Assembly (NCBI GenBank): GCA_965250285.1
Contig: OZ252299.1
Span: 5,056,001-5,120,000, forward strand
Reading direction: 5' to 3'
DNA: 64,000 nucleotides
From: Myxococcota bacterium
Lineage (GTDB): Bacteria; Myxococcota_A; UBA9160; UBA4427
Both the position numbers and the translations under genes were made by a program. The notes under the pieces are model-generated. The model had not been told where the DNA came from and did not search any database. It saw only the letters and a list, made by a program, of their open reading frames with translations. Positions 13,502 through 56,988 of this stretch are shown one piece after another. Each line of letters starts with the position of its first letter. Position 1 is the stretch's first letter.

Positions 13502-13770
13502 GCTGTGCCAGGGCCGGGGCAGGCGGGGGCACCGTGCTCAGACATTCTCGGCGCGATCCGCCAGGGAAGCTCGTTTGCCGCGCACGTCGCGCCTGCGAAC
13601 TGCGCGCGGTACCCCCGCCTGCCCCGGCCTCGAGAGGCTGTGCCAGGGCCGGGGCAGGCGGGGGCACCGTGCTCAGACATTCTCGGCGCGACCTGCCTGG
13701 GAAGCTCGTTTGTTGCGCACGTCGCGCCTGCGAACTGCGCGCGGTACCCCCGCCTGCCCCGGCCTCGGGA
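13502..13770. repeat. Two tandem copies of a ~135-bp element with long terminal inverted repeats (REP/MITE-like)
   Basis: Copies start at 13502 and 13637; each has GGCCGGGGCAGGCGGGGGCACCG ... CGGTACCCCCGCCTGCCCCGGCC. Confidence 0.9.
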
Positions 13771-36093: not shown

Positions 36094-36169
36094 GTGCCGC
36101 GCGGAGTTCACGATTCGGAGAAGGGCGGTGCCACGCGGAGTTCACGATTCGGCGAAGGGCGGTGCCGCG
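36094..36169. repeat. 34-bp tandem duplication spanning the SDR stop codon
   Basis: GTGCC(G/A)CGCGGAGTTCACGATTCGG(A/C)GAAGGGCG at 36094 and 36128 plus a partial third copy. Confidence 0.85.
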
Positions 36170-37041
36170 AGGATCGCCTTGGCGAGGTCGCCGACGTTCC
36201 ACGCTCCGGTGCTCCCGGGGTCGCGATAGGCGAGCAGCTTCTCGCCGGGCTCGCCGAACAGGCCGACATAGCCGCCCGAACCCGAGAACACCCGCCCGGT
36301 GATCCCGCGCGAGAGCGCGCTCGCGAGGAACACGTAGAGCGGCCCGAGATGCTCGGGCGGCGGTGGATCGAGTGAGGCCTGGCGAACCACGTCGTCGAGT
36401 AGTCCGCGCGCGTGCAGCGATTCGATGTGCCGCGCGTAGTCGTCGCCCGTCGAAAGCCGGGTGCGTGCGCCGGGGCAGACGGCATTCACCCGCACGCCGT
36501 GCTCGCGCAGCTCGGCCGCGATCGCGTAGGTCAGGCTGTTCGTCCCGCCCTTGCCCGCCGGGTAACCCGTGCCCCCGTAGTGCCCCATGAAGGCGTGCGA
36601 GCTCGTGTTCACGATCGCACCGCGGCCGGCCTGCTTCATGTGCGGCGTCGCGTGGCGACACGTGTTGAACGTCGCCGTGAGGTGCGCGTCGATCAGTCGC
36701 TGCCAGTCACCCGGCTCGAGGTCGAGGATCGACGAACCCGGTGGCTCGGCGATGCCCACGCAGTTCACGAGCACGTCGACCGACCCGAACGTGTCGATGC
36801 AGTGCGTGACCAGCGCGCCGGCGGCGTCGAACTCGGCGGCCGATCCGGCGTAGCCGATGGCCCGGTGCCCCGCGGCTTCGATCTCGGCGACGACGGCGTC
36901 GACTTCGGCCTGTCCCCGGCCGTTCACGACGACACGTGCCCCTGCCTCGGCGAGCGCCAGCGCGACGGCCCGGCCGATGCCGCGGCTCGAGCCCGCCACG
37001 ACGGCGCTCTGACCGTCGAGCGGCCGCGCGCCCGTCGTCAC
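36142..37041 (-). CDS. Short-chain dehydrogenase/reductase
   Basis: GSSRGIG, VLVNCVG, NTSS, YPAGK; GTG start overlaps upstream stop. Confidence 0.88.
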   Translation of the reverse strand: MTTGARPLDGQSAVVAGSSRGIGRAVALALAEAGARVVVNGRGQAEVDAVVAEIEAAGHRAIGYAGSAAEFDAAGALVTHCIDTFGSVDVLVNCVGIAEPPGSSILDLEPGDWQRLIDAHLTATFNTCRHATPHMKQAGRGAIVNTSSHAFMGHYGGTGYPAGKGGTNSLTYAIAAELREHGVRVNAVCPGARTRLSTGDDYARHIESLHARGLLDDVVRQASLDPPPPEHLGPLYVFLASALSRGITGRVFSGSGGYVGLFGEPGEKLLAYRDPGSTGAWNVGDLAKAILAAPPFAES

Positions 37042-40164: not shown

Positions 40165-40698
40165 CTAGAGGTTGAGCTCCAGACGGGCCGCTTCGGACAT
40201 CATGTCCATACTCCACGGCGGCTCCCAGACGAGCTCGAGCTGAACGTGACGCACGCCTGCGACGTCGCGCACCTTTGCTTCGACCTCGGGCGGCAGCGTC
40301 TCGGCCACGGGGCACATCGGCGTCGTCAGCGTCATCACGACCTGAACGTCGCCGGTCGGCTCGACTTCGACCTCGTAGATGAGGCCCAGCTCGTAGATGT
40401 CGACGGGGATCTCGGGGTCGTACACCGTCTTGAGCACCGCAATCACGGCGTCGCGCACGGCGGCGACGTCGACGGACTCACCCGGCATCGGCGGGCGTGC
40501 GGGCGCCGGGTCGGAAGCGGGCTCCGACGCCGCCGAGTCTGAGGGTGTGAGGGGCACCGCGGGTGCGGACGTGTGGGTCGTCTCGTCCGCCTCGGGTGCG
40601 GCTGCGTTCGCTTCGGACATCGCAGGGTTTCCTTCGGCGACCGTGGTGTCGGTGCCGGGCTCGTTGGTCTTGCGTCTGAATCGATCGAAGAAGGCCAC
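40165..40698 (-). CDS. sufT: SufT/PaaD-like DUF59 Fe-S assembly protein
   Basis: VYDPEIPVDIYELGLIY, TLTTPMCP, WEPPWS. Confidence 0.88.
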   Translation of the reverse strand: MAFFDRFRRKTNEPGTDTTVAEGNPAMSEANAAAPEADETTHTSAPAVPLTPSDSAASEPASDPAPARPPMPGESVDVAAVRDAVIAVLKTVYDPEIPVDIYELGLIYEVEVEPTGDVQVVMTLTTPMCPVAETLPPEVEAKVRDVAGVRHVQLELVWEPPWSMDMMSEAARLELNL

Positions 40699-40702
40699 GC
40701 TG

Positions 40703-41167
40703 CTACTCCGTCTTCGCGACGGTCTCGCCGCCCGTCGCCGCGGAGTGGAGCGTGTGCCAGCAGAGCGTCGCGCACTTCACGCGCATCGGAAACTCTCGGA
40801 CCCCCGAGAACACGGCGAGCTTGCCGAGACCCGGCGCGTCGACGTCCTGGTTCGGCGGCGCGGTCACGAGCTCGTGGAATCGCTCGAAGCCCTCCTCGAC
40901 CTCCTTGAGCGTTTTGCCCTTCACGAACTCGGTCATCAGCGATGCCGAGGCGGTCGAGATCGCGCACCCCGAGCCCGTGAAGCCCACGTCCACGACCTGA
41001 TCGCCCTCGACGACGAGCTCGACCGTCACCTCGTCGCCGCAGAGCGGGTTGTGCCCTTCGGCGGTCGCCGTGGGTTCATCGAGATGGCCGAAGTTCCTCG
41101 GGTTCTTGTTGTGATCGAGGATCATCGTCTGGTAGAGCTCGCGCAGCTCGTCGTCGACGCCGTCCAT
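40703..41167 (-). CDS. sufU: SufU Fe-S assembly protein
   Basis: LYQTMILDH, NPLCGD, GCAISTASAS, RVKCA. Confidence 0.93.
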   Translation of the reverse strand: MDGVDDELRELYQTMILDHNKNPRNFGHLDEPTATAEGHNPLCGDEVTVELVVEGDQVVDVGFTGSGCAISTASASLMTEFVKGKTLKEVEEGFERFHELVTAPPNQDVDAPGLGKLAVFSGVREFPMRVKCATLCWHTLHSAATGGETVAKTE

Positions 41168-42411
41168 CAGCCGAAGAGCTCCCGTGTCTTGTCGAGACCG
41201 ACGATCAGCTGATCGACGTCCTCGAACGTGTTGTAGAGGGAGAACGAGGCCCGCACCGTGGCCGGCACCCCGAAGCGCTTCATCAGCGGCTGGGTGCAGT
41301 GATGTCCCACGCGCACCGCGACGCCCTCCTGGTCGAGGATCGTGCCGACGTCGTGGGCGTGCACGCCGTCGAGGACGAACGAGATCACCGCCGCCTTGTC
41401 TTTGGTCGTGCCGAAGATCCGCACGCCGGGCATCGACTCGAGCGCCGCCGTCGCGCGCTCGAGCAGCTGGTGCTCCCACGCTGCGATCTGATCGAGCCCG
41501 ACGCCTTCGACCCAGTCGACGACGGCACCCAGCGCGATGGCCCCGGCGATGTCGGGCGTGCCGGCCTCGAACTTCTCGGGCACCGGCGCGTACGTCGTCT
41601 TCTCGAACGTCACCGTCTCGATCATGCCGCCGCCGCCCAGGAAGGGGGGCATCGCGTCGAGCAGCTCGCCGCGACCGTAGAGCACGCCGATGCCGGTGGG
41701 ACCGAAGAGCTTGTGCCCCGAGAATGCGTAGAAGTCGCAGCCGAGGGCTTCGACGTCGACCCGCATGTGCGGCACGGCCTGGGCGCCGTCGACCAGCACG
41801 CGGGCGCCGCGTGCCTTGGCCAGGGGGATCATCTCGTGCAGGGGCAGCACGGTGCCGAGGGTGTTCGAGACGTGGGCGACGGCGACGAGCTTCGTGCGGT
41901 CGTCGAGCGCCGAGGCGAAGCGCGCCACATCGATCGAGCCGTCTTCCTCGATCGGGACGACGACGAGCTCGATCCCCTTGCGATCGCGCAGCATCTGCCA
42001 GGGCACGATGTTCGCGTGATGCTCGAGCTCGGTGATGACGACGCGGTCGCCTGCTTCGAGGTTCTCTTCGGCCCAGGTGCGCGCGACGAGGTTGATCGCC
42101 TCGGTGGCGTTGCGCACGAAGATGCACTCGCGCGCTTCGTGGGCGCCGATCAGTGAGGCGACCTTGCCTCGCGCGTCCTCATAGCGGCGCGTCGCATCGG
42201 CCGAGAGCTGGTAGACGCCGCGATGGATGTTTGCGTAGCCCCGCGCGTAGACGTCTTCGATCGCGTCGATCACGGCCTGCGGCTTCTGCGCGCTCGCGGC
42301 CGAGTCGAGGAACGCAAGGCGTTTGCCGCGCACCTTCGTCTCGAGGATCGGGAACTGTGCCCGCACGGCGTCGACGTCGAAGGGGCCGTGAGCGAACTCT
42401 GAAGCGGTCAT
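41167..42411 (-). CDS. sufS: Cysteine desulfurase SufS
   Basis: LDSAASAQKP, EHHANIVPW, SGHK, RVGHHCTQP. Confidence 0.95.
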   Translation of the reverse strand: MTASEFAHGPFDVDAVRAQFPILETKVRGKRLAFLDSAASAQKPQAVIDAIEDVYARGYANIHRGVYQLSADATRRYEDARGKVASLIGAHEARECIFVRNATEAINLVARTWAEENLEAGDRVVITELEHHANIVPWQMLRDRKGIELVVVPIEEDGSIDVARFASALDDRTKLVAVAHVSNTLGTVLPLHEMIPLAKARGARVLVDGAQAVPHMRVDVEALGCDFYAFSGHKLFGPTGIGVLYGRGELLDAMPPFLGGGGMIETVTFEKTTYAPVPEKFEAGTPDIAGAIALGAVVDWVEGVGLDQIAAWEHQLLERATAALESMPGVRIFGTTKDKAAVISFVLDGVHAHDVGTILDQEGVAVRVGHHCTQPLMKRFGVPATVRASFSLYNTFEDVDQLIVGLDKTRELFG

Positions 42412-43757
42412 CGCTCGACCTCCGCGAGCGCGCCGTGCTCGGCATGCAGCTGCTCGACGAGCAGCCTGCCCGTCCACTCCTCGAGCTCGCGACCCGGCAG
42501 GCGCTCGGTGACCTCGGCCGCGAACCCCTCGGTCAAGAGCGCTCGGGCTTCGGGCTCCGAGAGGCCCCGAGCGCGCAGGAAGAAGAGCGCTTCGTCATCG
42601 AGGCGCCCCACCGTCGAGCCGTGGCTGCACTTCACGTCATCGGCCCGAATCTCGAGCTGCGGCTTCGTGTCGATCTCGGCCTGGTCGGTCACCAGCAGGT
42701 TCGGGTTCGACTGAGTGGCGTTGGTCTTCTGGGCACCGGGGCGCACGTCGACGCGCCCTCGAAACACACCGCGAGACCGGCCGCCGAGCACACCCTTGTA
42801 GAGCTCGTGGCTCTCGCAGTGCGGTGCCGCGTGCACGACCAGGGTCTGGTTCTCGAGATGCTGCTCACCGCCGCCGGTGAAGGCGCCGTCGAGCCGGGCC
42901 TCGGCGCCCGGCTCGGCGAGCTCGATCTCGAGCGCGTTTCGCACGAGGCGCCCGTCGAAGGTCAACACGTGGGAGTGGAAGAAGCTGTCGCGGGCCTGTC
43001 GTACGCGGGTGTTCGAGATGTGGAACCGCTCGCCGCCCTCGCGCTGCAAGAGCACGTGTTCGAGTCGCGCGTTCGCTTCGACCTCGATGCGGATGACCGC
43101 ATTGGTGAAGCCAGACGCCTGACCCAATCCGACGTGATCCTGGACCACGACGCACTGGCTGCCCTGCTCGGCCACGATCTCGACACGCGGGTAGCTCGCG
43201 CCGGCGGCCGCGCTCGCGACGAAGACGAGATGCAGCGGTGCGTCGACCCGGGCGTCGCGGGTGATCGTCACCAGCGCACCGTCTTCGACGAAGGCGGCGT
43301 TGAGGCACGTGAACGCGTCATCGACGTCTTCGGTATCGCCCGCCGAGAGCCAGCGCTCGAGCGCTTCATCGTCGCCGCGCACGTCGGCCAGCCGGGTGAC
43401 GCCGACGCCTTCGGGCAGCGACGCATCCGAGAGCGCCGCCTCGAAGCGACCGTCCACGAAGACCAGGCGAGGGCCGAAGGGCTGCTCGGGCAGGAACGCG
43501 GCGAGTTCGTCGCTCGAGACCTTCGAGTCGGGGGCCGCGACGCGAGAGAAGGCTTCGCCTTCGAGCGCGCGTAGGTTGGTGTAGCGCCAGTCTTCGTCCT
43601 TGCGCGTCGGAAAGCCGAGTGCGCCGAATCGCTCGATCGCTTCTCGGCGAAGCGCGCGCAGGCCATCGGCGTCGCGGCCGGCATCGCCCGTCGCGAAGGC
43701 GTCGAACTCGGCGAGATAGTGTGCCGTGATCGGCGGAGTGTCGGCGGCCGAACTCAT
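42408..43757 (-). CDS. sufD: Fe-S assembly protein SufD
   Basis: [30 protein letters not shown]. Confidence 0.93.
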
Positions 43758-44518
43758 GCGGGGGCTCCTGCGGCGGCCTCTTCCTCGACCCATCCGTAGC
43801 CGCGTTCTTCGAGCTCGAGGGCGAGATCCTTGCCGCCGGTCTTGACGATGCGGCCGTGCGCCAGCACGTGCACCTGGTCGGGCACGATGTAGTCGAGCAG
43901 GCGCTGGTAGTGCGTAATGACGAGCATCGAGCGGTCGGGCGATCGCAGCGAGTTGACGCCGTTCGCGACGATGCGCAGCGCATCGATGTCGAGCCCCGAG
44001 TCGGTTTCGTCGAGCACGCAGAGCTTGGGCTCGAGCAGCAGCATCTGGAGCACCTCGTTGCGCTTCTTCTCGCCGCCGCTGAAGCCCTCATTGATCGAGC
44101 GGCTCATCAGGTCGGACGGCATCTCGACGAGGCTCATCTTCTCCTTCGAGAGCTGCAGGAAGTCCATGGCGTCGAGCTCGGGCAGACCTCGATGGGCCCG
44201 CACCGCGTTCACGCTGGCCTTGAGGAAGTACCGGTTGTTCACGCCCGGGATCTCGACCGGGTACTGGAAGGCGAGGAAGATGCCTTCGCGTGCGCGCACC
44301 TCGGGCTCCATCTCGGTCAGGTCCTGGCCTTCGAAGGTCACCTTGCCTTCGGTGACTTCGTAGCCCGGACGGCCGGCGAGCACGTTCGAGAGCGTGCTCT
44401 TGCCCGAGCCGTTCGGGCCCATCACGGCGTGGATCTCGCCGGGCGCGATCTCGAGGTCGATGCCCTTCAGGATCTCGGTCCCGTCGGCGGTGGCGTGGAG
44501 GTTCTCGATCTTCAACAT
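43754..44518 (-). CDS. sufC: Fe-S assembly ATPase SufC
   Basis: [37 protein letters not shown]. Confidence 0.97.
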
Positions 44519-44575
44519 GGTGAATCCGTTTCGCCCTGTGCGGGGTCGGGGGGGGTGGGGGGATGCGTCAGCGGG

Positions 44576-46039
44576 TCAACCGACGCTGCCTTCGAGACTG
44601 ACCGAAAGCAGATTCTGGGCCTCGACGGCGAACTCCATCGGCAGCTCGCGCAAGACCTCCTTGCAGAAGCCGTTCACGATCATCGAGACCGCATCCTCTT
44701 CGTCGATGCCGCGCTGGCGGCAATAGAACAGCTGGTCTTCGCCGATCTTCGAGGTCGTCGCTTCGTGCTCGACCGTGGCGCTGCTGTTCTCGACTTCGAG
44801 GTAGGGGAAGGTGTGCGCGCCGCACTCGTCGCCCAGCAGGAGCGAGTCGCACTGCGAGTAGTTGCGGGCGCCCTCGGCCTTCTTGCCGATGCGCACGAGG
44901 CCGCGATAGCTCTGCTCGCCCTGCCCCGCCGAGATGCCCTTCGAGATGATCGTGCTCTTCGTGTTCTTGCCGAGGTGGATCATCTTCGTACCGGTATCGG
45001 CCTGCTGCTTGTTGTTCGTCATCGCGACCGAATAGAACTCGCCCACCGAGTCGTCGCCCTGCAGGATGCAGCTCGGGTACTTCCAGGTGATCGCCGAGCC
45101 CGTCTCGACCTGGGTCCACGAGATCTTGCTGCGGTCGCCGCGGCAGGCTCCGCGCTTGGTCACGAAGTTGTAGATGCCACCCTTGCCGTCCTTGTCGCCC
45201 GGGTACCAGTTCTGGACGGTCGAGTACTTGATCTCGGCGTCGTCGAGGGCGACGAGTTCGACCACCGCGGCATGCAGCTGGTTCTCGTCGCGCATTGGCG
45301 CGGTGCAGCCTTCGAGGTAGCTGACGTAGCTCGCCTCTTCGGCGACGAGCAGGGTGCGTTCGAACTGGCCGGTGCCGGCCGAGTTGATCCGGAAGTACGT
45401 CGACAGCTCCATCGGGCAGCGCACGCCCTTGGGAATGAACGCGAAGCTGCCGTCACTGAAGACCGCGCTGTTCAGACATGCGAAGAAGTTGTCGCTGTAG
45501 GGGACGACCGAGCCGAGGTACTTCTTCACGAGCTCGGGGTGATCCTTCACTGCCTCGCTGAACGAGCAGAAGATGATGCCCTGCTTCTCGAGCTCGTCCT
45601 TGAACGTGGTGGCGACCGACACGCTGTCGAAGACCGCATCGACGGCGACCTTGACGCCCGAGAGCCGCTTCTGCTCGAGCAGCGGGATCCCGAGCTTGTC
45701 GTAGGTCGCGAGCAGCTCGGGGTCGACCTCGTCGAGGCTCTCGAGCTCTTTCTTCGGCTTCGGCGCCGAGTAGTAGATGATGTCCTGGTAGTCGATCTTG
45801 GGATAGTCGACCGCGGCCCAGGTCGGCTCGTTCTCGGTCTCGAGCATCTCGAGGAACCGGCGCAGCGCCTTCAGTCGGAAGTCGAGCAGCCACTCGGGCT
45901 CCTCCTTCTTCGCGCTGATCAGCCGAACGACGTCTTCGTTGAGCCCGGGCGGGGCCTGGTCGGCCTCGATGTCGGTCACGAAGCCGTACTTGTATTCCTG
46001 ATTCGCGAGCTGCTCGAGCTCGGCGTTCGACTCGGACAT
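44576..46039 (-). CDS. sufB: Fe-S assembly protein SufB
   Basis: [32 protein letters not shown]. Confidence 0.97.
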
Positions 46040-46575
46040 CAGTTCATCTCCTCACCCGCGCTCGGGGCGGGGTCGTCGGCGGTGGGGACGTGGGCGCTCG
46101 AGCCCGGGATCTGGATCAGCGCGAGCGGGGCGTGCTGGGCCGAGAAGGCCGGATTCACGAGATCGGCGAGGCTGACCTCGCTGAGGGCGTTCTCGACGAC
46201 GCGGTTGATGACCTGCCACGGCGAGCGCACCGCGCAGGTGCTCTCGTGATCGCAGGCGCCCGGATCGACGGCGCACTGGGTCAGGGCGACCGGACCGTCG
46301 AGCGCCGCCACGAGCTCGGCGACGCTCAGGTCCTCGGGTCGGCGCGTCAGGGTGAAGCCGCCCTTCGCGCCCCGGTGACTCTCGAGCACGCCGCCGCGCG
46401 CGAGCTGCTTGAGCACCTTGCTGACGACGGGCAGCGGCAGGTCGACCTGGCCGGCCAGTTCACGTGCGTTCTGCGGCGGCTGCGGCTCGGCGCTCTCTCC
46501 GCGCGCGCCGCGCGCGCTCGCGAGGTGGGCGAGCAGCACGATCCCGTAGTCGGTCATGCGGCTGAGTCGGAACAT
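46039..46575 (-). CDS. Rrf2-family (IscR-like) SUF regulator
   Basis: [13 protein letters not shown], three Cys (TQC..GAC..STC); first gene of suf operon. Confidence 0.9.
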
Positions 46576-46760
46576 CGTTGCCTCGTGCGCTGCGCGTCTC
46601 GAGCGGTCACCGCCGGCGTCTCGGCGTGGCCGCTCGAGCGGTAATGGGTCCGTCTGGATCGCTCGACCAGAGGCCCGAGCCGGGCGCTCTCGATCGAAGG
46701 GGGCGTCGCCGAGACCCGGGTACCCGGCGTGGCGGGCCGGGGTCTCGTGCGGCGCAGACG

Positions 46761-46810
46761 ATATCGGACCAGATTACTCCTGTAAATATCGGACCATTGC
46801 TGTACGAATT
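46761..46810. promoter_or_regulatory. Two tandem 25-bp IscR-like boxes upstream of suf operon
   Basis: ATATCGGACCAGATTACTCCTGTAA and ATATCGGACCATTGCTGTACGAATT back to back. Confidence 0.6.
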
Positions 46811-46896
46811 ACTCAGATGCAGCAAGTCGCCGCGAGGGATCGCGATTCGCAGAATTTCCTGCGGGGAAATCGAGCGATCGGCGCCGCGTCCGACGC

Positions 46897-48198
46897 TCAG
46901 ACGACCTCGCCGACGCCGCTCCACCGCGCGAGGGGCAGCAGCACTGGCTCGCCGTCGTGGGGCCAGTCGAGCGGGGGGGCCTGCATCTGCCCGAGCGGGC
47001 AGACCCGCGTCGCGTCCAGCGCGGCGATCGCGCCGAGCGCGGGGTGGTCGCGTGCGTCGCCGTAGCCGGCGAAGCCCACGGTCGAGAGATGGCGGGCGAC
47101 CGGCTCGACCGCTTCGGCCCAGGCCTCGAGGTCGACGGCCGGATGCACGCGGACGAATCGCCCGAGCGGGGCGCCCCGGAGCCCGGCTTCGTCCTCGAGG
47201 ATCACGCTCCAGGCGGTGTCTTCGCTCGCCAGCACGCGCACCGAACGCCCGGCGGCCGCGCGCATCGCCGCCTCGTCGCGCTCCCCCCGGATGCGTGCGC
47301 CGACGTCGGGCGAGACCGGGCCGCGCGGCATGTCGATGGCCAGCGCCTGCAGCACCTCGGCGACCCCTTCCGCGAACCGCTCGGCCGCGTGTGCTTCGCC
47401 CCCGATCACGTGGACGCAGATGGGAGACAGGCAGCCGGACTGATCCCAGAGCGCCACGTCGAGCGCGAAGTCTGCGGCGGCCTCATCGAGGGCACCGTCC
47501 CGGCAGCCGTTCGCGTCGACCACGGCGAGCGACAAGCGGTGGCCGTAGCCGACGAGGCGGTTCGCGGCACCGACGCGCGCGGCGATGTCGCGCAGGGTCG
47601 CGTCCGAACCGCTCGCGACGATGCACGGCGCGTCGAGGAATGCGTCGAGCGTCGCCGTGTCGTCGCCGTCGAAGTCGATCACCTCGAGGCACGCGCCGAT
47701 CTCGGCGTCGACGTCCCGCAGACACTCCGCGACGAGCCGCGCGCTGATCCGGTCGCGCGACGCGGTCTTGGCCAGCACCGGTGAACGCACCAGCAGCGGC
47801 GTCAGGCAGCTGACCAGCGTCGGCATGGGGATGCTGCCCGCGAGCACGACGCTCGTCTGCGCGTGAGGCCGCAGCACGCGGCCCGCGCGCAAGGAGGGCC
47901 CGAGCTCGAGATCGACGAGCGCCCGGACGGCGTCGAGATCCCACCCGGCGAGCGCGAGCTCGAGCCCGGTGGCGATGGTCGGCGCCGTGAAGCCCGTCGC
48001 CTCGGGCAGGGCCTCGACGAGCCGGGCCCCCTCGTGATGCGCCGCGCTGCGAAATCGTTCGAGCACCTGCCCGACGATCCCGACCACGTCTTCGAGCGGG
48101 CGGGCGAGCAGCGCAGTGCGTGCTTCGGCGAGCCGGCCGGTCGCTTCGTGCACGCGGTCGACGCCCGCGTCGGGCCACTCGATCGTGAGATCACCCAT
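46897..48198 (-). CDS. LuxC-like acyl-thioester (acyl-CoA) reductase
   Basis: VLAGSIP, KTASRD, ASGSD, YGHRLS, WDQSGCLSP catalytic Cys, RVCPLGQMQAP..HDG. Confidence 0.85.
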   Translation of the reverse strand: MGDLTIEWPDAGVDRVHEATGRLAEARTALLARPLEDVVGIVGQVLERFRSAAHHEGARLVEALPEATGFTAPTIATGLELALAGWDLDAVRALVDLELGPSLRAGRVLRPHAQTSVVLAGSIPMPTLVSCLTPLLVRSPVLAKTASRDRISARLVAECLRDVDAEIGACLEVIDFDGDDTATLDAFLDAPCIVASGSDATLRDIAARVGAANRLVGYGHRLSLAVVDANGCRDGALDEAAADFALDVALWDQSGCLSPICVHVIGGEAHAAERFAEGVAEVLQALAIDMPRGPVSPDVGARIRGERDEAAMRAAAGRSVRVLASEDTAWSVILEDEAGLRGAPLGRFVRVHPAVDLEAWAEAVEPVARHLSTVGFAGYGDARDHPALGAIAALDATRVCPLGQMQAPPLDWPHDGEPVLLPLARWSGVGEVV

Positions 48199-48368
48199 GC
48201 GGGTTCGTCTCTGCAGCTCGTCGCATCGTGCGCTCAGCCATGCGAGTTCGTCCCTGCAGCTCGTCGCATCGTGCGCTCAGCCATGCGAGTTCGTCCCTGC
48301 AGCTCGTCGCATCGTGCGCTCACCCATGCGAGTTCGTCCCTGCAGCTCGTCGCATCGTGCGCTCACCC
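48191..48368. repeat. 4 x 43-bp tandem repeat filling the luxE-like/luxC-like junction
   Basis: Unit CATGCGAGTTCGTCCCTGCAGCTCGTCGCATCGTGCGCTCA(G/C)C starting at 48196, 48239, 48282, 48325. Confidence 0.95.
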
Positions 48369-49523
48369 AAGGCGGGGCGCCTCGCTCGGCGCGGCGTCGA
48401 GCATCAGGTCGGCGGCGATCGAGCAGCCCCGTGCTTCGGCGCCGGGCTCTCGGCCGAGCACCTCGAAGCCACGCCCGAAGCGCCCATCATCGGTCTCCGC
48501 ATCGATCCAGCGCCCGAGGTCGGCGGTCTGGATCGCCGCGACGCTGCCCGTATTGGCCAGATCGTGAATGACGACGAGCCCGGGGGCGTCGCCTTCGACG
48601 TCGCGGCCGGTCTCGGGGTCGACGAGGCGCACGCGCGCCCACGGTGGCCCGAGCTTGCGGCGGCGGCCGACGTCGTCGACCAGCACAGAGTCGTAGAACT
48701 GGCTGCCGAGCTCGGTCATGCCGTACTGGTTGACGATCTGCGTGGGGGCGATGCCGAACGTCTCGTGCAGTGCGGAGTAGAACGTGTCGCGTGAGATCTC
48801 GCGCGAGCGGCCCTTGAAGCCGCCGGTCTCCATGATGCGCGAGCCGGGTGCGCATGCGAATCGATGACCGCGTTCGGCGCACGCATCGAGCGCATGCACG
48901 AACCCGAAGGCGGTGCCGCAGAGGGCGACCGGCTTCTGCGCATCGCCCGCGCGAGCGAGGGCGGCGATCAACCCGTCGACGTCGAGCTCACCGTCCGTCA
49001 CGTCGAAGCCGCTGTGTGCGTCGCCGACGTCGTCGATCAGGCAGCCGAACATGTGAGAGAGCGACGAGTCGTCGAGCTCGTCTGGCGAGGGCGCGAGCAC
49101 GCGCAGCGTCATCCGCTCGCGCGGGTTGCGCCCCAGGTCGGGGAAGAGCAGCTGCGCGAGCGTCGGTGCGAGCGAGGCCTCGTAGAGCGCGAGCGTGTCG
49201 AGCAGCAGGGTGCCCCGGCGTGCGCCGGCCGCCGCGCTCGTTCCGCTCGTGCGAAACACGTGGCGCGTGGCGTCGCTCGGAAAGCAACGCAGCTCGAGCT
49301 CCTTGAACGCGCCCGTTGGCACCGCGGGCACGTCGCGCCACGATGTGACGCTGCCCGGCGTCGCGCCACGGGCCTCGCAGAAGCGGCCATACGGCGCGTT
49401 GGCTTCGTACTGAAACGCGAACAGGTCGAGCGACAGCGTCTCGAAGCGCGGATCGTCGGCTCGCCACTCGGGCTCGCTCATCCAGGTGAGCAGCTCGCGT
49501 TCGATCGCTTCGCGCGTGCTCAT
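48363..49523 (-). CDS. LuxE-like acyl-protein synthetase
   Basis: FAFQYE, FRTSGTS, METGGFKG, NQYGMTEL, DLAN, QTADLG, VLGR, C-terminal RGCS acyl-accepting Cys; ATGA overlap with aminotransferase. Confidence 0.88.
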   Translation of the reverse strand: MSTREAIERELLTWMSEPEWRADDPRFETLSLDLFAFQYEANAPYGRFCEARGATPGSVTSWRDVPAVPTGAFKELELRCFPSDATRHVFRTSGTSAAAGARRGTLLLDTLALYEASLAPTLAQLLFPDLGRNPRERMTLRVLAPSPDELDDSSLSHMFGCLIDDVGDAHSGFDVTDGELDVDGLIAALARAGDAQKPVALCGTAFGFVHALDACAERGHRFACAPGSRIMETGGFKGRSREISRDTFYSALHETFGIAPTQIVNQYGMTELGSQFYDSVLVDDVGRRRKLGPPWARVRLVDPETGRDVEGDAPGLVVIHDLANTGSVAAIQTADLGRWIDAETDDGRFGRGFEVLGREPGAEARGCSIAADLMLDAAPSEAPRLG

Positions 49524-50836
49524 GCCGATCCCTTCGAGGCGCTGCGAATGAGTCGCGCGAGCACGTCGACGGCGAAGTCGAGCGCCGGCTCGGTGATGCA
49601 GAGTGGGGGCGTGAGCGAGAGCACGCGCCCGCCCTCGCCCGAAGGCAGCAGGATCAAACCCTGCTCGAGGGCGCGCTGGCAGACGTCGAGGGCGAGCTCG
49701 GGCGCGCTGCATTCGATGCCGATCATCAATCCGCGTCCGCGCACCTCGTGCACGCCATCGTCGCCCGCGAGGCGCGCACCGAGCTGGGCGAGCGTCGCGG
49801 TGCCGACGCGGGCAGCGTGCTCGACGAGCCCCGACGCTTGGATCACTTGCATCGAGGCGAGCGCTGCTGCGCAGCTCGCCGGGTGGCCGAGGAACGTCTG
49901 CGTGTGCAGCGCTTCGCCGGTCGACGCGGGCCAGGCTTCCATGACGCGAGCGCGCCCGAGGCAGGCCGAGATCGGCATACCCGAGGCGAGGCCCTTGCCG
50001 ACGCAGAGCAGGTCGGGCACGACGCCCTCGTGATCGCAGCCAAACCACGTGCCGGTGCGACCGAAGCCGGTGTAGATCTCGTCGGCGATCAATAGCAGGC
50101 CGCGGTCGTCGCACATCGTGCGGAGCGTGCGAAGAAAGCCGTCCGGCGGGACGCGCTCGCCGCCGCGGCCCTGCACCGGCTCGACCAGCACGGCGCCGAT
50201 CTCGCGGTGCGCATCGAGCTTGATTCGGGCGTCTTCGGCGTCGCCGAAGCGGGCGAAGACCGTCTCATGTGGCAGGCGCGCGCGGAACGGCGCGCGAAAG
50301 TCGTCCCGGTGCGTCGCATCGAGTGCGCCGAGGGCGAGGCCGTGATAGCCGCCTTCGAATGCGAGTACGCCGACGCGACCGGTCGAGAGCGCGGCGGTCT
50401 TGAGCGCCGTTTCGACCGCGTCGCTCCCCGAGGACGACAGCACGCCGCGCGCCGACTCGCCGCCGGGATAGCGAGCGCACAGCGCTTCGAGCAGCTCGAC
50501 CTTGACGGCGGACGGATGGACGTCGCCCATGCCGTGCAGCAGCTCGGCCGACTGGCGCGTGATCGCTTCGACGACGGCCGGGTGGGCGTGCCCGACGTTC
50601 GAGACGCCGAACGCGCCGCCCAGGTCGAGGAAGCGGTTGCCGTCGACATCCCACACGTTCACGCCCGACGCGCGCTGCCAGAAGATCGGCGCCGGCGGAC
50701 CGAGATGCGTGACGTTGCGGCTCTCGACGGCAGCGAGCCGCTGCGCAAGCGCCTCTGAACGAGGGCCGGGAATGGCCGTCACGAGGTCGGGCAGCAGCGG
50801 TTCGGGCCACCGAGGGCTGGGGTCGGGGGTCGACAT
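49520..50836 (-). CDS. Class-III PLP aminotransferase (GabT/ArgD-like)
   Basis: WDVDGNRFLD, SGSDAVETALK, YHG, EPVQGRGG, ADEIYTGFGRTG, PDLLCVGKG, TFLGHP. Confidence 0.92.
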   Translation of the reverse strand: MSTPDPSPRWPEPLLPDLVTAIPGPRSEALAQRLAAVESRNVTHLGPPAPIFWQRASGVNVWDVDGNRFLDLGGAFGVSNVGHAHPAVVEAITRQSAELLHGMGDVHPSAVKVELLEALCARYPGGESARGVLSSSGSDAVETALKTAALSTGRVGVLAFEGGYHGLALGALDATHRDDFRAPFRARLPHETVFARFGDAEDARIKLDAHREIGAVLVEPVQGRGGERVPPDGFLRTLRTMCDDRGLLLIADEIYTGFGRTGTWFGCDHEGVVPDLLCVGKGLASGMPISACLGRARVMEAWPASTGEALHTQTFLGHPASCAAALASMQVIQASGLVEHAARVGTATLAQLGARLAGDDGVHEVRGRGLMIGIECSAPELALDVCQRALEQGLILLPSGEGGRVLSLTPPLCITEPALDFAVDVLARLIRSASKGSA

Positions 50837-50964
50837 GGCGTTCGAGTGTAGCCGTGGCGGCTCGCGGCCTTGGGGTGCCGCGTTCCGGCGCGCTGGCGGG
50901 CCGGGCTAGAGTGGGTTGCGTGCATCGGCCGACGCACGCGCGCCGCCATTGAGAGAAGGAAGGA

Positions 50965-51480
50965 ATGAAGGCCTGCATCGGGCTCGGGTCGAACCTCGGC
51001 GATCGCCTCGCGATGCTGCGCGCCGCGCGCGAGGCGCTCGACGGCGCCGCGCGCATGCGGGTGCTCCGAGCGTCGCGCGTGTACGAGACCGCGCCGGTCG
51101 GCCCGGGGGACCAGGGGCCCTACTTGAATGCGGCGCTGCTCATCGAGACCGAGTGGCCGCCCCGCGCGCTCCTCGGACGCCTCCTCGAGATCGAGCGCGG
51201 CCTGGGCCGCGATCGCAGCGCCGCCGCGGTGCGCTGGGGGCCGCGCACGATCGATCTCGATCTGCTCCTCGCCGGCGACCTCAGCATCGAAGAGCCGGGG
51301 CTCGAGTTGCCCCACCCGAGGCTGCACGAGCGGGCGTTCGTGCTCGTGCCCCTGGCCGAGGTCGCGCCGGAGGCACGTCATCCCGGTCTCGGGGTTCGCA
51401 TCGACGAGCTGGCCGCGCGGGCGCCCGGGCTGGATCAGATCGCGTGCCTCGAGACGGTGGGCACCGCCGACTGGCTCTGA
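50965..51480 (+). CDS. folK: 6-hydroxymethyl-7,8-dihydropterin pyrophosphokinase
   Basis: IGLGSNLG, RWGPRTIDLDLL, PHPRLHERAFVL. Confidence 0.95.
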   Translation: MKACIGLGSNLGDRLAMLRAAREALDGAARMRVLRASRVYETAPVGPGDQGPYLNAALLIETEWPPRALLGRLLEIERGLGRDRSAAAVRWGPRTIDLDLLLAGDLSIEEPGLELPHPRLHERAFVLVPLAEVAPEARHPGLGVRIDELAARAPGLDQIACLETVGTADWL

Positions 51481-51603
51481 GCGCCCGCGACGCGACCTTT
51501 GTCGAGATTCATGATCCCTCGGCGGGGTTTCTTGCATCGAACTCCGCAGCCTGGTAATCAGGAATTTCCGGGTCACCCTCCCCAGAATCCCCTGGAGCGC
51601 GCC

Positions 51604-52407
51604 ATGACAGCCGCCGAACACACGACCGGGCCAACCCCGGTGCTCACGGACGTGTCACGAGAATCCAGTCAAATCAGTGACTTGCATTCCTTCGATGCCG
51701 AGGCAATGGAGGCGTCGAGTCCCGAAGAAATCTTGACCTGGGCGATCGGAAAATATCATCCGCGGCTCACCCTGAGCGCTTCTTTCGGCGCGCCCGAAGG
51801 GATGGTGCTGCTGGACATGATGCACGAGATCGATCCCTCGACGCGCGTCTTCGTTCTCGACACGGGCCGACTCCATCAAGCGACCTTCGATCTGATCGAT
51901 CGGGTGCGCGACCGTTACGACAAGGACATCGAGGTGATCTTCCCCGACGCCGAGGCCGTGCAGGACATGGTCCGCGAGAAGGGGATGAACCACTTCTACG
52001 AGTCGCTCGAGAATCGCAAGCTCTGCTGCCGCATTCGCAAGGTCGAGCCGTTGCGCCGCCACCTGGCCCACTTCGACGCGTACGTCACGGGCCTGCGTCG
52101 CGATCAGAACGTCACGCGCCGCGACACGCCGAAGGTCGAGCTCGACGTCGGCAACGGCGGTCTGGTCAAGATCAATCCGATCGCCGACTGGACCCACGAG
52201 CAGGTGATGGACTACGTCGGCGAGCACAAGGTGCCGACCAACCGTCTGCATGCCGAGGGCTACCCGTCGGTGGGCTGCGCGCCTTGCTCGCGCGCGATCG
52301 CGCCCGGTGACGATCCGCGCGCTGGACGCTGGTGGTGGGAGAGCGAGGAGACCAAGGAGTGCGGTCTTCACGTGCCCGACGAGCAGCAGGGCGGCCTCGG
52401 CATCTGA
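51604..52407 (+). CDS. cysH: APS/PAPS reductase (Fe-S, APS-type)
   Basis: LDTG, CCRIRKVEPL, TGLRRDQ, SVGCAPC, RAGRWWWE, KECGLH. Confidence 0.93.
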   Translation: MTAAEHTTGPTPVLTDVSRESSQISDLHSFDAEAMEASSPEEILTWAIGKYHPRLTLSASFGAPEGMVLLDMMHEIDPSTRVFVLDTGRLHQATFDLIDRVRDRYDKDIEVIFPDAEAVQDMVREKGMNHFYESLENRKLCCRIRKVEPLRRHLAHFDAYVTGLRRDQNVTRRDTPKVELDVGNGGLVKINPIADWTHEQVMDYVGEHKVPTNRLHAEGYPSVGCAPCSRAIAPGDDPRAGRWWWESEETKECGLHVPDEQQGGLGI

Positions 52408-52597
52408 GGCGTCGCCCCCCGCCCGAGCGCACGCTCGGCCCCAGTGTCGCATGCGTCTCGCGTCGCCTCGCCTCGTCTCACCTCATCGCGACCGGCAGCC
52501 CGCCGGCAGCCGATGCGCAGCATGGCAGCCGATTCAAGGCGCGGCGCGACTCGGCCGATGAAGGGAGTGGCCGGGTGTGTGGCCAGGGGAGTGACGG

Positions 52598-53023
52598 ATG
52601 AGCAGCGTGCGGACAACGATCGGTCGAGGCCTGGGCTTTGCTGCGCTGGCCTGCGCGCTCGTGCTTGCGGTGGGCGGGGTGACGGCGGCGCGCGCCGACG
52701 AGGCTCCGGCCGAGTCGAGCCCGCCCGCGCCCGATGCGAGCTTCGAGGGCTTCGCCGATCACCTCGAGCGCGAAGGACGTCCCGTCGTCGAAGACGCGGG
52801 GCCCACCTGCCAACCCGGCGCGAACGATCCGGTCGCCGTCGAGATGGCCCACCGCCGCGTCGTGGCCGAGCTGCAGGCGCGCCTGCAGGCCGAGGCGCGC
52901 GCACGCGCCGCCGAGCACGGGGGCGACCCCGAGATCGTGGTGCTCAATGGCCGGGGCTACAACTACCGCGCCCCCACCCCCGGCGAACAGCCGCCGGCGC
53001 CGGTGACCCCGCCCCAGGACTGA
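52598..53023 (+). CDS. Hypothetical exported protein
   Basis: Signal peptide-like N-terminus ending ARA, GGGAG RBS, C-terminal VVLNGRGYNY. Confidence 0.6.
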   Translation: MSSVRTTIGRGLGFAALACALVLAVGGVTAARADEAPAESSPPAPDASFEGFADHLEREGRPVVEDAGPTCQPGANDPVAVEMAHRRVVAELQARLQAEARARAAEHGGDPEIVVLNGRGYNYRAPTPGEQPPAPVTPPQD

Positions 53024-53057
53024 TCTCGCCCGACGGCGGCGCCATCTCCGTGCGCGG

Positions 53058-53193
53058 CCGCGGCACCCTCTTCGCGCCGAGCTGATCTGCGTCTGCGTGC
53101 CCGCGGCACCCTCTTCGCGCCGAGCTGATCTGCGTTTGCGTGCTCGCGGCACCCTCGTCGCGCCGAGCTGATCTGCGGCTGCGTGCCCGCGGC
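53058..53193. repeat. 3 x 43-bp intergenic tandem repeat
   Basis: Unit CCGCGGCACCCTCTTCGCGCCGAGCTGATCTGCGTCTGCGTGC at 53058, 53101, 53144 plus a partial copy. Confidence 0.92.
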
Positions 53194-53359
53194 CGCCGCC
53201 TCTTTCATGTCGCCGCAGCGCGTCGAGACCGCCCGATGAGCCCGCGGGCGCTCGCTCATCGAGCGACGATCTGTGCGATCCTTCGCCGCTCTGGGGCAAA
53301 GCGCAAACGTTGGGACGCCGTCGGCACCGGGTTGAACCGACGGCGCTCGGGACCCGTTC

Positions 53360-55897
53360 ATGGATCCGGTTTCCACCCTTCGAGTCCGGCGTCTGACCGG
53401 CACGCTGGCTGCGCTGTGGGCGATCTCAGCGGTGGCCATGTCGGCCTTCGCGCTGATCCCTCGCGCCGATACGCCCTCGCTCCCCTTCAGCAGCGCCTTC
53501 GTGGCCGGCGTGGCCTTGATCCACGCCGTCGGACCCGACGCACGCGAAGCGGGCATCGAGCCCGGCGACGAGTGGATCTCGATCGACGGTGAGCCGGTCG
53601 TGCGGATGATGGATGAAGGGCGGGGCGCGCTCTTCCCGGGGCGCGTGAACGTCTACGAGGTCGAGAAGCAGGATGGCCGGGTCGTCAAGGCCGCGCTCTC
53701 GCCCCAGCCACCGGGCGCAAACGAGCGGCCCGGCGATCTGCTGCTGCACTTCGCGCTGCTGATCGTCGCGTCGCTCTACGTGACGGTCGGTCTCGCGGTG
53801 TGGTGGAGCAAACCGGGGACGGCCGAGGCGTGGGCGCTCCTGCTCTTCTGCTCGACGATGACGGTGCTGATCTCGACGACGATTCGCGCCGACGAGGTGC
53901 CGTGGTCGTTCTCGCGCGTGCTCGCGAACCTGCCCTTCATCGGTGCGACGACGTTCCACCTGTTCACGACCTATCCGATCGAGCCGCCCTGGATCGTCCG
54001 CTATCGACGCACGCGCGCGGTGCCCTATCTGCTCGCATTCGCGATCTTTCTGGGCGTGGTCGGCGTGCGCGCGGGCACCATCGACGCTCGACTGATGGCA
54101 TCGATCGCGGGCTTCTACGGCGTCGGCGTCGCGCTGGCCTCGGTGGCGGTGCTCGCGGCGCAGCGGCGGCGCGCACACGACGCGGGGATCGGCGAGCGCG
54201 TCGACCTCATGTTGCTCGCGGGCGTCGTGAGCTTCGTGCCGATGCTGCTGATGATCGGCATGGTCTACGTGCTGCAGACGCCGATCCCCTGGTACATGGC
54301 CATGCTCTGGGTGGGCTTCTTCCCGCTCGCGGTGGGCTACGGGATGCTGCGCAAGCAGCTCTTCGACTTTCGCATCGTCGCGCGCTCGTCGGCCGCCTAC
54401 GGCGCCGCGACCTTCACCATCACCGGTTTGTTCGCGTTCTCGATCACCTTCGCCGACGAGCTGATCCAGACCTACGGCGTGAACGTGCGCAGCGTGCAGG
54501 TGATCCTGCTCTTTCTCGCGATCCTCGCCTTCAATCCGCTGCGCGAACGACTGCAGGGGCTGGTCGATCGCCTCTTCGATCGCGACCGCGCGCGCTATCG
54601 CCAGGCCGTGCGAGAGATCTCGGAGGCGATGGTGTCGATGCTGTCGCTGGGTGAGATCGGCGATCGCATTCTCGTCGCCGTGACCGACACCATGGGCGTC
54701 GAACGCGCGATGGTCCTGCTCTTCGACGAGAACGACAAGGTGCTGCGGCCGGCCGCGTGGCGCGGCGATTGGGACGAGCAGGACGTCCAGGCCGAGATCC
54801 CGAGCGAGCATCCGATCTGGAAGCACCTGTGGATGCGGCGCGAAGAGCTGATGCGCGCCGATTTCGACGACGAGCCCGACGCCGAGGCCCGCGAAGAGTG
54901 CTGGGACGTGTACGACACGCTCGAGGTCGAGCTGCTCGTGCCCATCCTCTTCGGTGTCGATCTGCTGGGGGTGATCGTCGTGGGGCGGAAGCTCTCGGGC
55001 GAGCGTCTGACGCCCGACGATCGACAGCTCCTGCGCACGCTCGCGAATCAGAGCTCGATCGCCATCGAGAACGCCAAGGCGTTCGACGAGATCGCCAAGC
55101 TGAACGAATCGCTCGAGGCCCGCGTCGAGGAGCGCACCCAGGAGCTGCGCGAGACGCAGACGCAGCTGATGCAGAGCGAGAAGATGAGCTCGCTCGGTCA
55201 GCTCGTCGCCGGCGTCGCCCACGAGCTGAACAACCCGATCGGGTTCGTGCACGCCAATCTGCAGCTGCTCGACGAGTTCATCGAGAAGCTCGCGACGGCG
55301 CAGGCGTCGGGGGCCGACACCGAGCGGGTGCGCGAGGCGATCACCAAGCTGCTGACGCGCAGCCGCGAAGGCACCGAGCGCGTGAAGAAGATCGTGCAGG
55401 ATCTGCGTACGTTCTCGCGCATGGATCAGGCCGAGAGCCAGATGGCCGATCTGCACGAGGAGATCGACCGGACGCTCGCGCTGATGGAGCCGCGGCTCAA
55501 GAACAAGATCAAGATCGACCGGCACTACGGCGACATCCCCGAGGTGCGCTGCTATCCGGGGCAGCTCAACCAGGTGTTCCTCAATCTGCTCATGAATGCC
55601 TGTGACGCGCTCGACGACACGGGCGGCACGATCCGCATCTCGAGCGAGCGCAGCGACCTCGGCGTGCGGCTCGAGTTCGCCGACGACGGGCCAGGGATCC
55701 CGATGCATGTCCAAAGCCGCATCTTCGATCCATTTTTCACCACCAAGGAGGTGGGCAAGGGCACGGGCCTGGGGCTCTCGCTCTCCCACGGCATCGTGGA
55801 GCGCCACGGCGGGCGCTTCCTGGTGCACTCGGAGCCCGGCGAGGGCGCGACCTTCGTGCTCGATCTGCCGCTCGACGCGGCGCCGGCGGCCGAATAG
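53360..55897 (+). CDS. Membrane sensor histidine kinase (PDZ-like, multi-TM, GAF, HisKA, HATPase)
   Basis: AGIEPGDE..SIDG PDZ-like; TM block; GAF; AHELNNP H-box; QVFLNLLMNA, DDGPGI, FDPFFTTK, GTGLGL. Confidence 0.93.
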   Translation: MDPVSTLRVRRLTGTLAALWAISAVAMSAFALIPRADTPSLPFSSAFVAGVALIHAVGPDAREAGIEPGDEWISIDGEPVVRMMDEGRGALFPGRVNVYEVEKQDGRVVKAALSPQPPGANERPGDLLLHFALLIVASLYVTVGLAVWWSKPGTAEAWALLLFCSTMTVLISTTIRADEVPWSFSRVLANLPFIGATTFHLFTTYPIEPPWIVRYRRTRAVPYLLAFAIFLGVVGVRAGTIDARLMASIAGFYGVGVALASVAVLAAQRRRAHDAGIGERVDLMLLAGVVSFVPMLLMIGMVYVLQTPIPWYMAMLWVGFFPLAVGYGMLRKQLFDFRIVARSSAAYGAATFTITGLFAFSITFADELIQTYGVNVRSVQVILLFLAILAFNPLRERLQGLVDRLFDRDRARYRQAVREISEAMVSMLSLGEIGDRILVAVTDTMGVERAMVLLFDENDKVLRPAAWRGDWDEQDVQAEIPSEHPIWKHLWMRREELMRADFDDEPDAEAREECWDVYDTLEVELLVPILFGVDLLGVIVVGRKLSGERLTPDDRQLLRTLANQSSIAIENAKAFDEIAKLNESLEARVEERTQELRETQTQLMQSEKMSSLGQLVAGVAHELNNPIGFVHANLQLLDEFIEKLATAQASGADTERVREAITKLLTRSREGTERVKKIVQDLRTFSRMDQAESQMADLHEEIDRTLALMEPRLKNKIKIDRHYGDIPEVRCYPGQLNQVFLNLLMNACDALDDTGGTIRISSERSDLGVRLEFADDGPGIPMHVQSRIFDPFFTTKEVGKGTGLGLSLSHGIVERHGGRFLVHSEPGEGATFVLDLPLDAAPAAE

Positions 55898-55947: not shown

Positions 55948-56988
55948 ATGAAGCTCGGCATCCTCTCCGGCTATTCGCCGGCCACCATGAACATCAACAT
56001 CGACGGCATCCGGCACGCCGAAAGCCTCGGCTACGACTCGTGTTTCACCGCCGAGGCCTACGGCTCGGACGCCGTCTCGCCCGCAGCTTGGATCCTGGCG
56101 CAGACCGAGAAGATCAACGTGGGCACGGCGATCATGCAGATGCCGGCGCGCTCGCCCGCCAACACGGCGATGACCGCGATGACGCTCTACGCGCTCTCGG
56201 GCGGTCGCTTCATTCTGGGCCTCGGCCCTTCGGGCCCGCAGGTCGTCGAAGGCTGGCACGGGGTGCCCTACGGCAAGCCCCTCACGCGGACGCGCGAGTA
56301 CATCCAGATCATCCGCAAGATCCTCGAGCGCAAGGAGCCCGTGAGCTTCGAGGGCGAGATCTACCAGATGCCCAACACCGGGCCGGGCACGACCGGCCTC
56401 GGTAAGCCGCTCAAGAGCATCCTGCACGGCGACCCGGCGATGAAGATCTACACCGCGTCGATCTCGCCGAACGGCATGCGCTGCGCCGGTGAGGTGGCGG
56501 ACGGCGTCTTCCCGGTGTGGATGGATCCGACGCGCTTCGACGTGTTCGAGGAGCACCTGCAGAAGGGCTTCGACAAGGCCGGCGGCGGCAAGTCGCTCGA
56601 CGACTTCACGATCGCGCCGTTCGTGACGTGCATCATGGGCGACGACCTCGAGAAGTGCCGCATCCCGGTCAAGAACCAGCTGGCGCTCTACGTCGGCGGC
56701 ATGGGCGCACGCGACAAGAACTTCTACAACGACTACACCCAGCGGCTCGGCTTCGAAGAGGCTGCGAAGACGATCCAGGATCTCTACCTGGACGGGAAGA
56801 AGGCCGAGGCGGTCGCTGCCGTGCCCGACGAGTACGTCGATCGCGTCGCCCTGGTCGGTCCCCCCGATCGGATTCGCGATCAGCTGGGTGCCTGGAAGGA
56901 AGCGGGCGCGAAGAACCACGTCGGTACGATGCTGATCGGCGGCGGCGGCAAGAAGGCCTACGAGCTGCTCGCCGAGGAGCTGCTGTAG
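55948..56988 (+). CDS. LLM-class (probably F420-dependent) oxidoreductase
   Basis: AEAYGSDA, LGLGPSGPQVVEGWHG, LYVGGMG motifs. Confidence 0.88.
   Translation: MKLGILSGYSPATMNINIDGIRHAESLGYDSCFTAEAYGSDAVSPAAWILAQTEKINVGTAIMQMPARSPANTAMTAMTLYALSGGRFILGLGPSGPQVVEGWHGVPYGKPLTRTREYIQIIRKILERKEPVSFEGEIYQMPNTGPGTTGLGKPLKSILHGDPAMKIYTASISPNGMRCAGEVADGVFPVWMDPTRFDVFEEHLQKGFDKAGGGKSLDDFTIAPFVTCIMGDDLEKCRIPVKNQLALYVGGMGARDKNFYNDYTQRLGFEEAAKTIQDLYLDGKKAEAVAAVPDEYVDRVALVGPPDRIRDQLGAWKEAGAKNHVGTMLIGGGGKKAYELLAEELL

Follow-up and report, generated by a model that had tools for sequence, protein, structure and literature searches.

Which carboxylic acid could be the substrate of three adjacent genes in a Myxococcota bacterium that encode a class-III aminotransferase, a LuxE-like ligase and a LuxC-like reductase? 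This triad lies in a 64,000-nucleotide stretch (hereafter the window) of contig OZ252299.1 (assembly GCA_965250285.1, positions 5,056,001 to 5,120,000), as three intact, co-directional open reading frames on the minus strand at window positions 46897-50836. The first-pass annotation had read it as a route from R-COOH through R-CHO to R-CH2NH2, leading either to fatty amines and amino-lipids or to ornithine, lysine or polyamines. The chemistry, which is plausible, and the gene linkage are supported by conserved residues, adjacency across the phylum and the existence of LuxE-LuxC fusions; the proposed substrates are not. We consider it likely, judging from sequence and gene content, that the triad replaces QueC and QueF in queuosine synthesis, taking 7-carboxy-7-deazaguanine (CDG) to preQ1 by way of an aldehyde.

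The conversion of CDG, an acid, to the aminomethyl compound preQ1 is ascribed to QueC and QueF in the available parts of two reviews (PMC5699537, PMC13740343), and since R-COOH to R-CH2NH2 is their net reaction on CDG, the triad matches the gap that is left where both are missing. This genome, a single 6.25-Mb contig rated 95% complete, has such a gap: it encodes two folE genes, a QueE-like radical SAM protein, two tgt genes, queA and queG, and yielded no QueC match over the cut-off and no QueF or YhhQ match. The triad thus occurs in a carrier that has folE, queE, tgt, queA and queG and is without queC and queF. Queuine-using TGTs are described as differing from the bacterial type at the Cys158 and Gly233 positions (PMC5699537); because both TGTs of this genome keep the Cys158 equivalent and are without Gly233, they are not of the queuine-salvage type. 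The two bacterial-type paralogues lie at G000:C1:1705619-1707849 and 4720318-4721394; in the copy next to queA, Leu occupies the position of Val233.

The triad is near-mutually exclusive with queC and queF across the phylum, and queE is retained. Among 301 genomes, 241 have luxE only, 46 queC only, five both and nine neither, so that a luxE match is found in 246 genomes and queC over its cut-off in 51. Strong QueF matches occur in 42 genomes, only one of which is among the 246 luxE carriers, with a luxE of the second-weakest kind (E 3.8e-12), and the aminotransferase was counted in none of these 42. Within the order, luxE, the aminotransferase and queE are present in all 48 genomes, and none has queC over the cut-off. 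Outside the order a single-protein QueE search proved insensitive (88/301) and was replaced by a profile, G110 being one of its rows. This profile detected QueE in all 65 additional luxE carriers to which it was applied, out of 198, and, beyond the phylum, in 10 of 11 carriers. A QueD-family gene is present in 67 of 70 genomes, and canonical QueD (CxxxHGH) in 22 of 22 luxE-positive, queC-negative genomes represented in the 30 best-scoring loci that were read. A QueC match was also rare (1/26) in a set of luxE carriers drawn nearly entirely from other phyla.

The genomes that depart from this pattern are few. Two of the five doubles, G254 (L374, C41) and G306 (L375, C20), hold queC within DNA-modification islands of the order folE2-queE-queC-DndB-like-TGT-like, their folE2 being a folE2-HTH fusion; as DNA modification needs preQ0, island queC genes fit the proposed replacement. 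In G352 and G322 queC stands in unrelated contexts, and in G216 luxE is only weak and queF is present too. The nine genomes with neither gene include two with partial queC (G134, G304), four with the aminotransferase and two that are without queE too (G089, G203). Fisher values of about 1e-39 overstate the exclusion, the genomes being kin and no species tree standing behind the values. The best evidence against pure shared ancestry comes from switches within families: luxE and the aminotransferase are missing from G205, in which queC adjoins a long queF, and present in nine members of the same family, and family f45 is split likewise (G340 versus G189). Five further genomes (G100, G121, G162, G266, G308) have queC and neither a QueF nor a luxE match, a second possible gap at the reduction of preQ0.

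The linkage of the three genes is equally regular. With luxE present in 61 of 61 relatives and all three genes adjacent in 30 of 30 loci of the order, the arrangement is not due to chance. Among 80 loci from the genome collection, 55 near-relative loci have the aminotransferase adjoining luxE, luxC being present too in 53 (two of the 55 end early at a contig edge); the rest comprise two full triads in another lineage, 20 luxE-luxC pairs, mostly from Gemmatimonadota, and three Sumerlaeota loci with luxE alone. Most of the Gemmatimonadota genomes with the bare pair encode the aminotransferase elsewhere. The aminotransferase also adjoins luxE in 24 of 40 hand-picked loci from distant families, so the association on which the first-pass annotation had staked its reading recurs well beyond this genome. 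A single-query count of the aminotransferase (196/301, with five candidates scored per genome) was too low and was replaced by a profile re-search, which recovered it in 47 of 53 luxE carriers first missed (G109, G210 and G064 were profile rows) and raised the count to 244 of 301, 240 of these being luxE carriers (240/246). The GR[GA]G signature is present in 30 of 30 re-search loci returned, the other 18 lying outside this check; three luxE-negative controls gave lower-scoring aminotransferase matches (372-414 bits) that were left out of the count. The genome studied here has one copy each of LuxE and LuxC. Such a distribution is the pattern of a housekeeping pathway. Viral contigs gave no copies of the triad when searched by LuxE, with one weak partial match among phage records, and none of 56 phage aminotransferase loci has LuxE or LuxC alongside.

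How would the three proteins divide the reaction? The LuxE-like ligase would adenylate CDG, the product of QueE, and pass the acyl group to its own C-terminal Cys367, from where it would move to Cys256 of the LuxC-like protein and be released by NAD(P)H as 7-formyl-7-deazaguanine, in analogy with the LuxC-LuxE acyl relay described for structure 7XC6 (PMC12041015, PMC9157457). The aminotransferase would then turn the aldehyde into preQ1, on which TGT, QueA and QueG would act as usual. The motifs quoted in the first-pass annotation are all present, with their catalytic residues invariant in alignments: TSGT (92-95), YGMTEL (267-272) and RGCS (365-368) in the LuxE-like protein, whose K237, R358 and C367 are unchanged in 48 of 48 rows; DQSGCLSP in the LuxC-like protein, with C256 in 33 of 33 rows and an H412-D413 pair; and the pyridoxal phosphate (PLP) lysine K281 of the aminotransferase, invariant in 37 of 37 rows together with D252 and E253 of the DE motif. 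Equivalents of the catalytic residues given for Photobacterium phosphoreum LuxE (K238, R355, C364) and LuxC (C296, H442, D443; PMC9157457) are all retained. Family membership of the three proteins follows from scores over the gathering thresholds of PF04443 and PF05893, together with the catalytic Lys, Arg and Cys of LuxE and the Cys of LuxC, and from 327.8 bits to PF00202 with the PLP lysine and DE motif.

The first two enzymes stand well apart from their luminous namesakes. The LuxE-like protein aligns to 7XC6_E at E 6.9e-42 and reaches 81.3 bits against the NCBIfam LuxE model (cut-off 550); a polar D-S-S-L is conserved where luminous LuxE shows V-W-F-K-Y-V. Its predicted model (mean predicted local distance difference test score, pLDDT, 92) finds its nearest folds, at template modelling (TM) scores of about 0.55-0.62, among PaaK-type aryl and heteroaryl acid ligases, namely PaaK 2Y27, EhpF 3L2K, ClxA 9S45 and NatL2 6TM4, which activate ring carboxylates; these share 11-17% identity with it and, to judge from the description of LuxE in PMC9157457, would be without the RGCS cysteine tail. 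The LuxC-like protein scores 54.3 bits against NCBIfam LuxC (cut-off 750), and its profile aligns to residues 47-447 of the 477 of 7XC6_A, the C-terminal oligomerisation segment being missing. Of 26 long LuxE homologues, 11 are LuxE-LuxC fusions and 14 are fusions of LuxE with an alcohol dehydrogenase.

The aminotransferase belongs to an uncharacterised class-III subfamily. Its model (pLDDT 94.6) has the GabT fold, with a TM score of 0.91 to 3Q8N, and the enzyme comes closest, among those with solved structures, to GabT, ArgD and putrescine aminotransferase (identity about 33-36%); among the best 25 NCBIfam equivalog models shown, none scores over its cut-off. In GabT the HGR, GEGG and R-x-x-PPL residues bind omega-amino acids and 2-oxoglutarate, the Arg of HGR binding the carboxylate. 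The triad enzyme shares the fold and PLP-binding residues of GabT and ArgD, whereas nearly all of the 34 rows of the subfamily differ from them at these three positions: compared with GabT structures it reads YHGL for YHGR, EPVQGRGG for GEGG and VLSLTPPL for VIRLLPPL, that is, R to L167, E to R224 and R to S407, with L167 in 32 rows, R224 in all 34 and the commonest residues at 407 not including Arg. Residues that mark the subfamily are E38, F76, G104-D105, L167 of YHGL, R224 of EPVQGRGG, W302 and H311. It reaches no ArgD, GabT or LysJ equivalog cut-off and has none of the three motifs, and a separate argD over the cut-off is present in the genome. The three Sumerlaeota loci (L152-L154), where luxE has no adjacent luxC, encode a related aminotransferase in which FHGR and GEGG are retained; these enzymes may act on a different substrate.

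Set against the bioluminescence pair of P. phosphoreum (7XC6), the triad thus has the same two families with the catalytic residues kept, and a CoA-free acyl-Cys relay would be expected in it too; it differs in its low scores to the luminous models, the missing LuxC segment, its coupling to an aminotransferase and its single-copy, near-core status in the phylum. Nor does the locus look like a luminescence operon. The neighbours are folK and a suf operon, and, as the first-pass annotation had noted, neither luxAB nor luxD lies beside the triad (the neighbours only were inspected, and no whole-genome search for either was made); a luciferase-like gene 5.1 kb off (55948-56988) belongs to the F420-dependent LLM oxidoreductases, with a match to TIGR03559 above its cut-off. 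With canonical QueC and QueF the triad would share the net reaction, the initial activation of the carboxylate by ATP and the use of NAD(P)H. The folds are unrelated, and the proposed intermediates are a thioester and an aldehyde instead of the amide ADG and the nitrile preQ0, which would not be made at all; an amino acid would donate the nitrogen by way of PLP.

Several observations weigh against the assignment to queuosine. The QueE candidate is the best match of E. coli QueE, yet it stays below all NCBIfam QueE cut-offs. The only QueD-family gene of this genome (COG0720, G000:C1:4282572-4283003, L163) falls below the QueD cut-off and has the ExxHGH motif, described as PTPS-III and folate-type (PMC5041015), although FolB is present as well. 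Other families have the ExxHGH type directly beside a canonical QueD (L256, L259, L260, L262, L268, L270, L271). In the bacterial loci screened (L043-L122, L133-L161, L172-L211) the triad has no queE, queD, queC, queF, tgt or queA for a neighbour, the nearest related gene being a gluQ about 6 kb off in L194, and three loci from a metagenome scan with a distant LuxE had no que genes. The only physical link to a que gene is on contig L287, where a QueE C-terminal fragment (74 aa, E 1.8e-6 to the profile) precedes an aminotransferase of the same subfamily by 12 bases; the fragment has no Pfam match and the contig is probably chimeric. One family (f33) has no QueD-family gene in three of three genomes. 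Weak QueF-family matches above the Pfam cut-off (28-31 bits) occur in ten genomes of the order, and we provisionally take them for FolE cross-hits; 13 luxE carriers have mid-score QueF-like matches (56-70 bits). In a second phylum of five genomes the complementary pattern is not reproduced: a QueC-family gene is found in two of three luxE carriers and in neither of two non-carriers. Lastly, plasmid luxE-luxC-SDR cassettes (34-41% LuxE identity) sit alongside NMT1/THI5, NCS2 or ThiW transporters. Intermediate-score QueF-like T-fold proteins occur in luxE carriers without queC from three families (f33, f39 and f47; e.g. G329:C2:952635-952862), and, speculatively, that of f33 might stand in for QueD.

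Because these plasmid LuxE-LuxC pairs accompany thiamine- and nucleobase-type transporters, the clade to which the triad belongs handles other substrates too. The cassettes (L275-L280), found on plasmids of Pantoea, Azospirillum, Priestia, Lactiplantibacillus, Niallia and Pseudomonas, are candidate salvage routes in which a heteroaromatic acid would be reduced to its alcohol, which might be a precursor of thiamine, and the LuxE-alcohol dehydrogenase fusions may have the same activity; the cassettes support heteroaromatic substrates for the clade, not necessarily CDG. Could the triad, then, aminate some other small heteroaromatic acid for vitamin salvage, such as a thiamine-type pyrimidine carboxylate or pyridoxic acid, the queC pattern being a lineage coincidence and preQ1 being salvaged or made by another enzyme? 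The NMT1/THI5 binding proteins, NCS2 permeases and ThiW of the cassettes, the dehydrogenase fusions, and the neighbours Thiamine_BP (11 of 55 loci) and folK (43 of the 80 screened) all lean that way. We nevertheless regard this as unlikely: it does not account for the retention of queE in genomes where the triad is present and queC and queF are missing, thiC, thiG, thiE and folB are all encoded in this genome, no transporter recurs beside the triad, and folK is not adjacent in 40 loci of other families.

The two products named in the first-pass annotation fare worse under the same scrutiny. A long-chain fatty amine or amino-lipid has precedents in both chemistry and enzymes: true LuxC-LuxE reduces myristate (PMC9157457), a Streptomyces LuxC-like reductase with an omega-transaminase gives dodecylamine (bioRxiv 10.1101/2025.08.11.669332), and an aminotransferase without the carboxylate-binding Arg would fit an uncharged aldehyde as well. 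The tambjamine enzymes TabE and TabA (Streptomyces) and TamH likewise pair a LuxC-like thioester reductase with an omega-transaminase to make a primary amine, but they act on fatty acyl chains bound to an acyl carrier protein, in a secondary-metabolite cluster and without a self-acylating ligase of the LuxE type. In P. phosphoreum LuxC the P460-P488 element is reported to close the long hydrophobic fatty-acyl cleft (PMC9157457); the triad LuxC ends before this segment, which disfavours a fatty product, and in the LuxE-like protein a conserved Ser-Ser takes the place of the Trp-Phe of true LuxE. The annotated neighbours include no recurring family of acyl carrier proteins, thioesterases or acyltransferases, and the exclusion with queC would be left without a reason, so that we hold a fatty amine to be very improbable. 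A kinase-independent analogue of ArgBCD, LysZYJ or Lys2 in ornithine, lysine or polyamine synthesis, for which the kinship of the aminotransferase with GabT, ArgD and putrescine aminotransferase speaks, we find barely credible. The replaced GabT/ArgD signature residues, with YHGL in place of YHGR, stand against it, as do argB, argC, argD, asd, dapA, proA, hemL and speA over their cut-offs and a lysA-like gene; with these and hemA present, there is no gap in arginine, lysine, proline or polyamine synthesis for the triad to fill, and the loss of argB/argC or dap/lys genes for which the first-pass annotation proposed to check carriers is not seen here. The argC is of the argC_other type, and the genome further has a bioA-like gene and panD. 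Replacement of a step towards 5-aminolevulinate or beta-alanine, considered together with the arginine, lysine, proline and polyamine steps, was rejected on finding the standard genes.

If the triad does replace QueC and QueF, what follows beyond this genome? It seems fairly probable that LuxE/LuxC with a transaminase forms a second de novo preQ1 route, bypassing ADG and preQ0, that most Myxococcota use this route (about four in five of the genomes sampled), which occurs also in Gemmatimonadota, and that non-luminous LuxC-LuxE homologues are largely heteroaromatic-acid reductases of primary metabolism, the luciferase-feeding pair being a specialised branch. The consulted portions of recent reviews treat FolE-QueD-QueE-QueC-QueF as the sole de novo route and TGT-bearing bacteria without QueC/QueF as salvagers (PMC5699537, PMC13740343, PMC13602947), the 2026 compendium giving, in the part available, only canonical queuosine enzymes (PMC13602947); our literature searches, whose scope did not extend to supplements and subscription papers, returned nothing that connects LuxE/LuxC with queuosine. 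Under the proposed reading a substantial fraction of the myxobacteria and their relatives would be reclassified as queuosine producers, and a widespread LuxE/LuxC clade, misannotated as 'long-chain fatty acid--CoA ligase' and 'acyl-CoA reductase', would gain a role in primary metabolism. The triad would also provide a cascade that turns a heteroaromatic acid into an aminomethyl compound without CoA or a carrier, and E. coli offers an inexpensive test of the claim.

The layout of the locus, with its ATGA overlap between the aminotransferase and luxE genes, stands as first described, the reading frames and Pfam scores (Table 1) both agreeing with it.

Table 1. Features of the triad locus (window coordinates); functions are proposals
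Feature	Position	Strand	Length, Pfam score and remarks
Class-III PLP aminotransferase	49520..50836	-	438 aa; PF00202 327.8 bits; proposed 7-formyl-7-deazaguanine aminotransferase
LuxE-like adenylating ligase	48363..49523	-	386 aa; PF04443 70.7 bits (cut-off 24.9); proposed CDG-activating enzyme
LuxC-like thioester reductase	46897..48198	-	433 aa; PF05893 156.1 bits; proposed CDG-thioester reductase
43-bp tandem repeat, 4.4 copies	48182..48369	n/a	fills the luxE-luxC gap

Divergent folK and cysH genes (50965-52407) lie upstream of the triad and a complete Rrf2-sufB-sufC-sufD-sufS-sufU-sufT-like operon (40165-46575) downstream. The folK, cysH and suf neighbours are shared within the order, with Rrf2 present in 32 of 55 loci, but not with the distant families read, and so reflect order-level synteny only. 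An Rfam search of window positions 44000-54000 gave no preQ1 riboswitch and no match near a gathering score. The 43-bp repeat, which the first-pass annotation does not mention, duplicates the junction between the luxE stop and the luxC start, and the genome holds no other copy; in a relative of the same genus luxE and luxC abut without it, and its presence at this junction is probably incidental. Further tandem repeats in intergenic gaps of the window lie at 53051-53193 (43 bp, 3.3 copies), 36094-36173 (34 bp, 2.4 copies) and 13502-13767 (135 bp, two copies).

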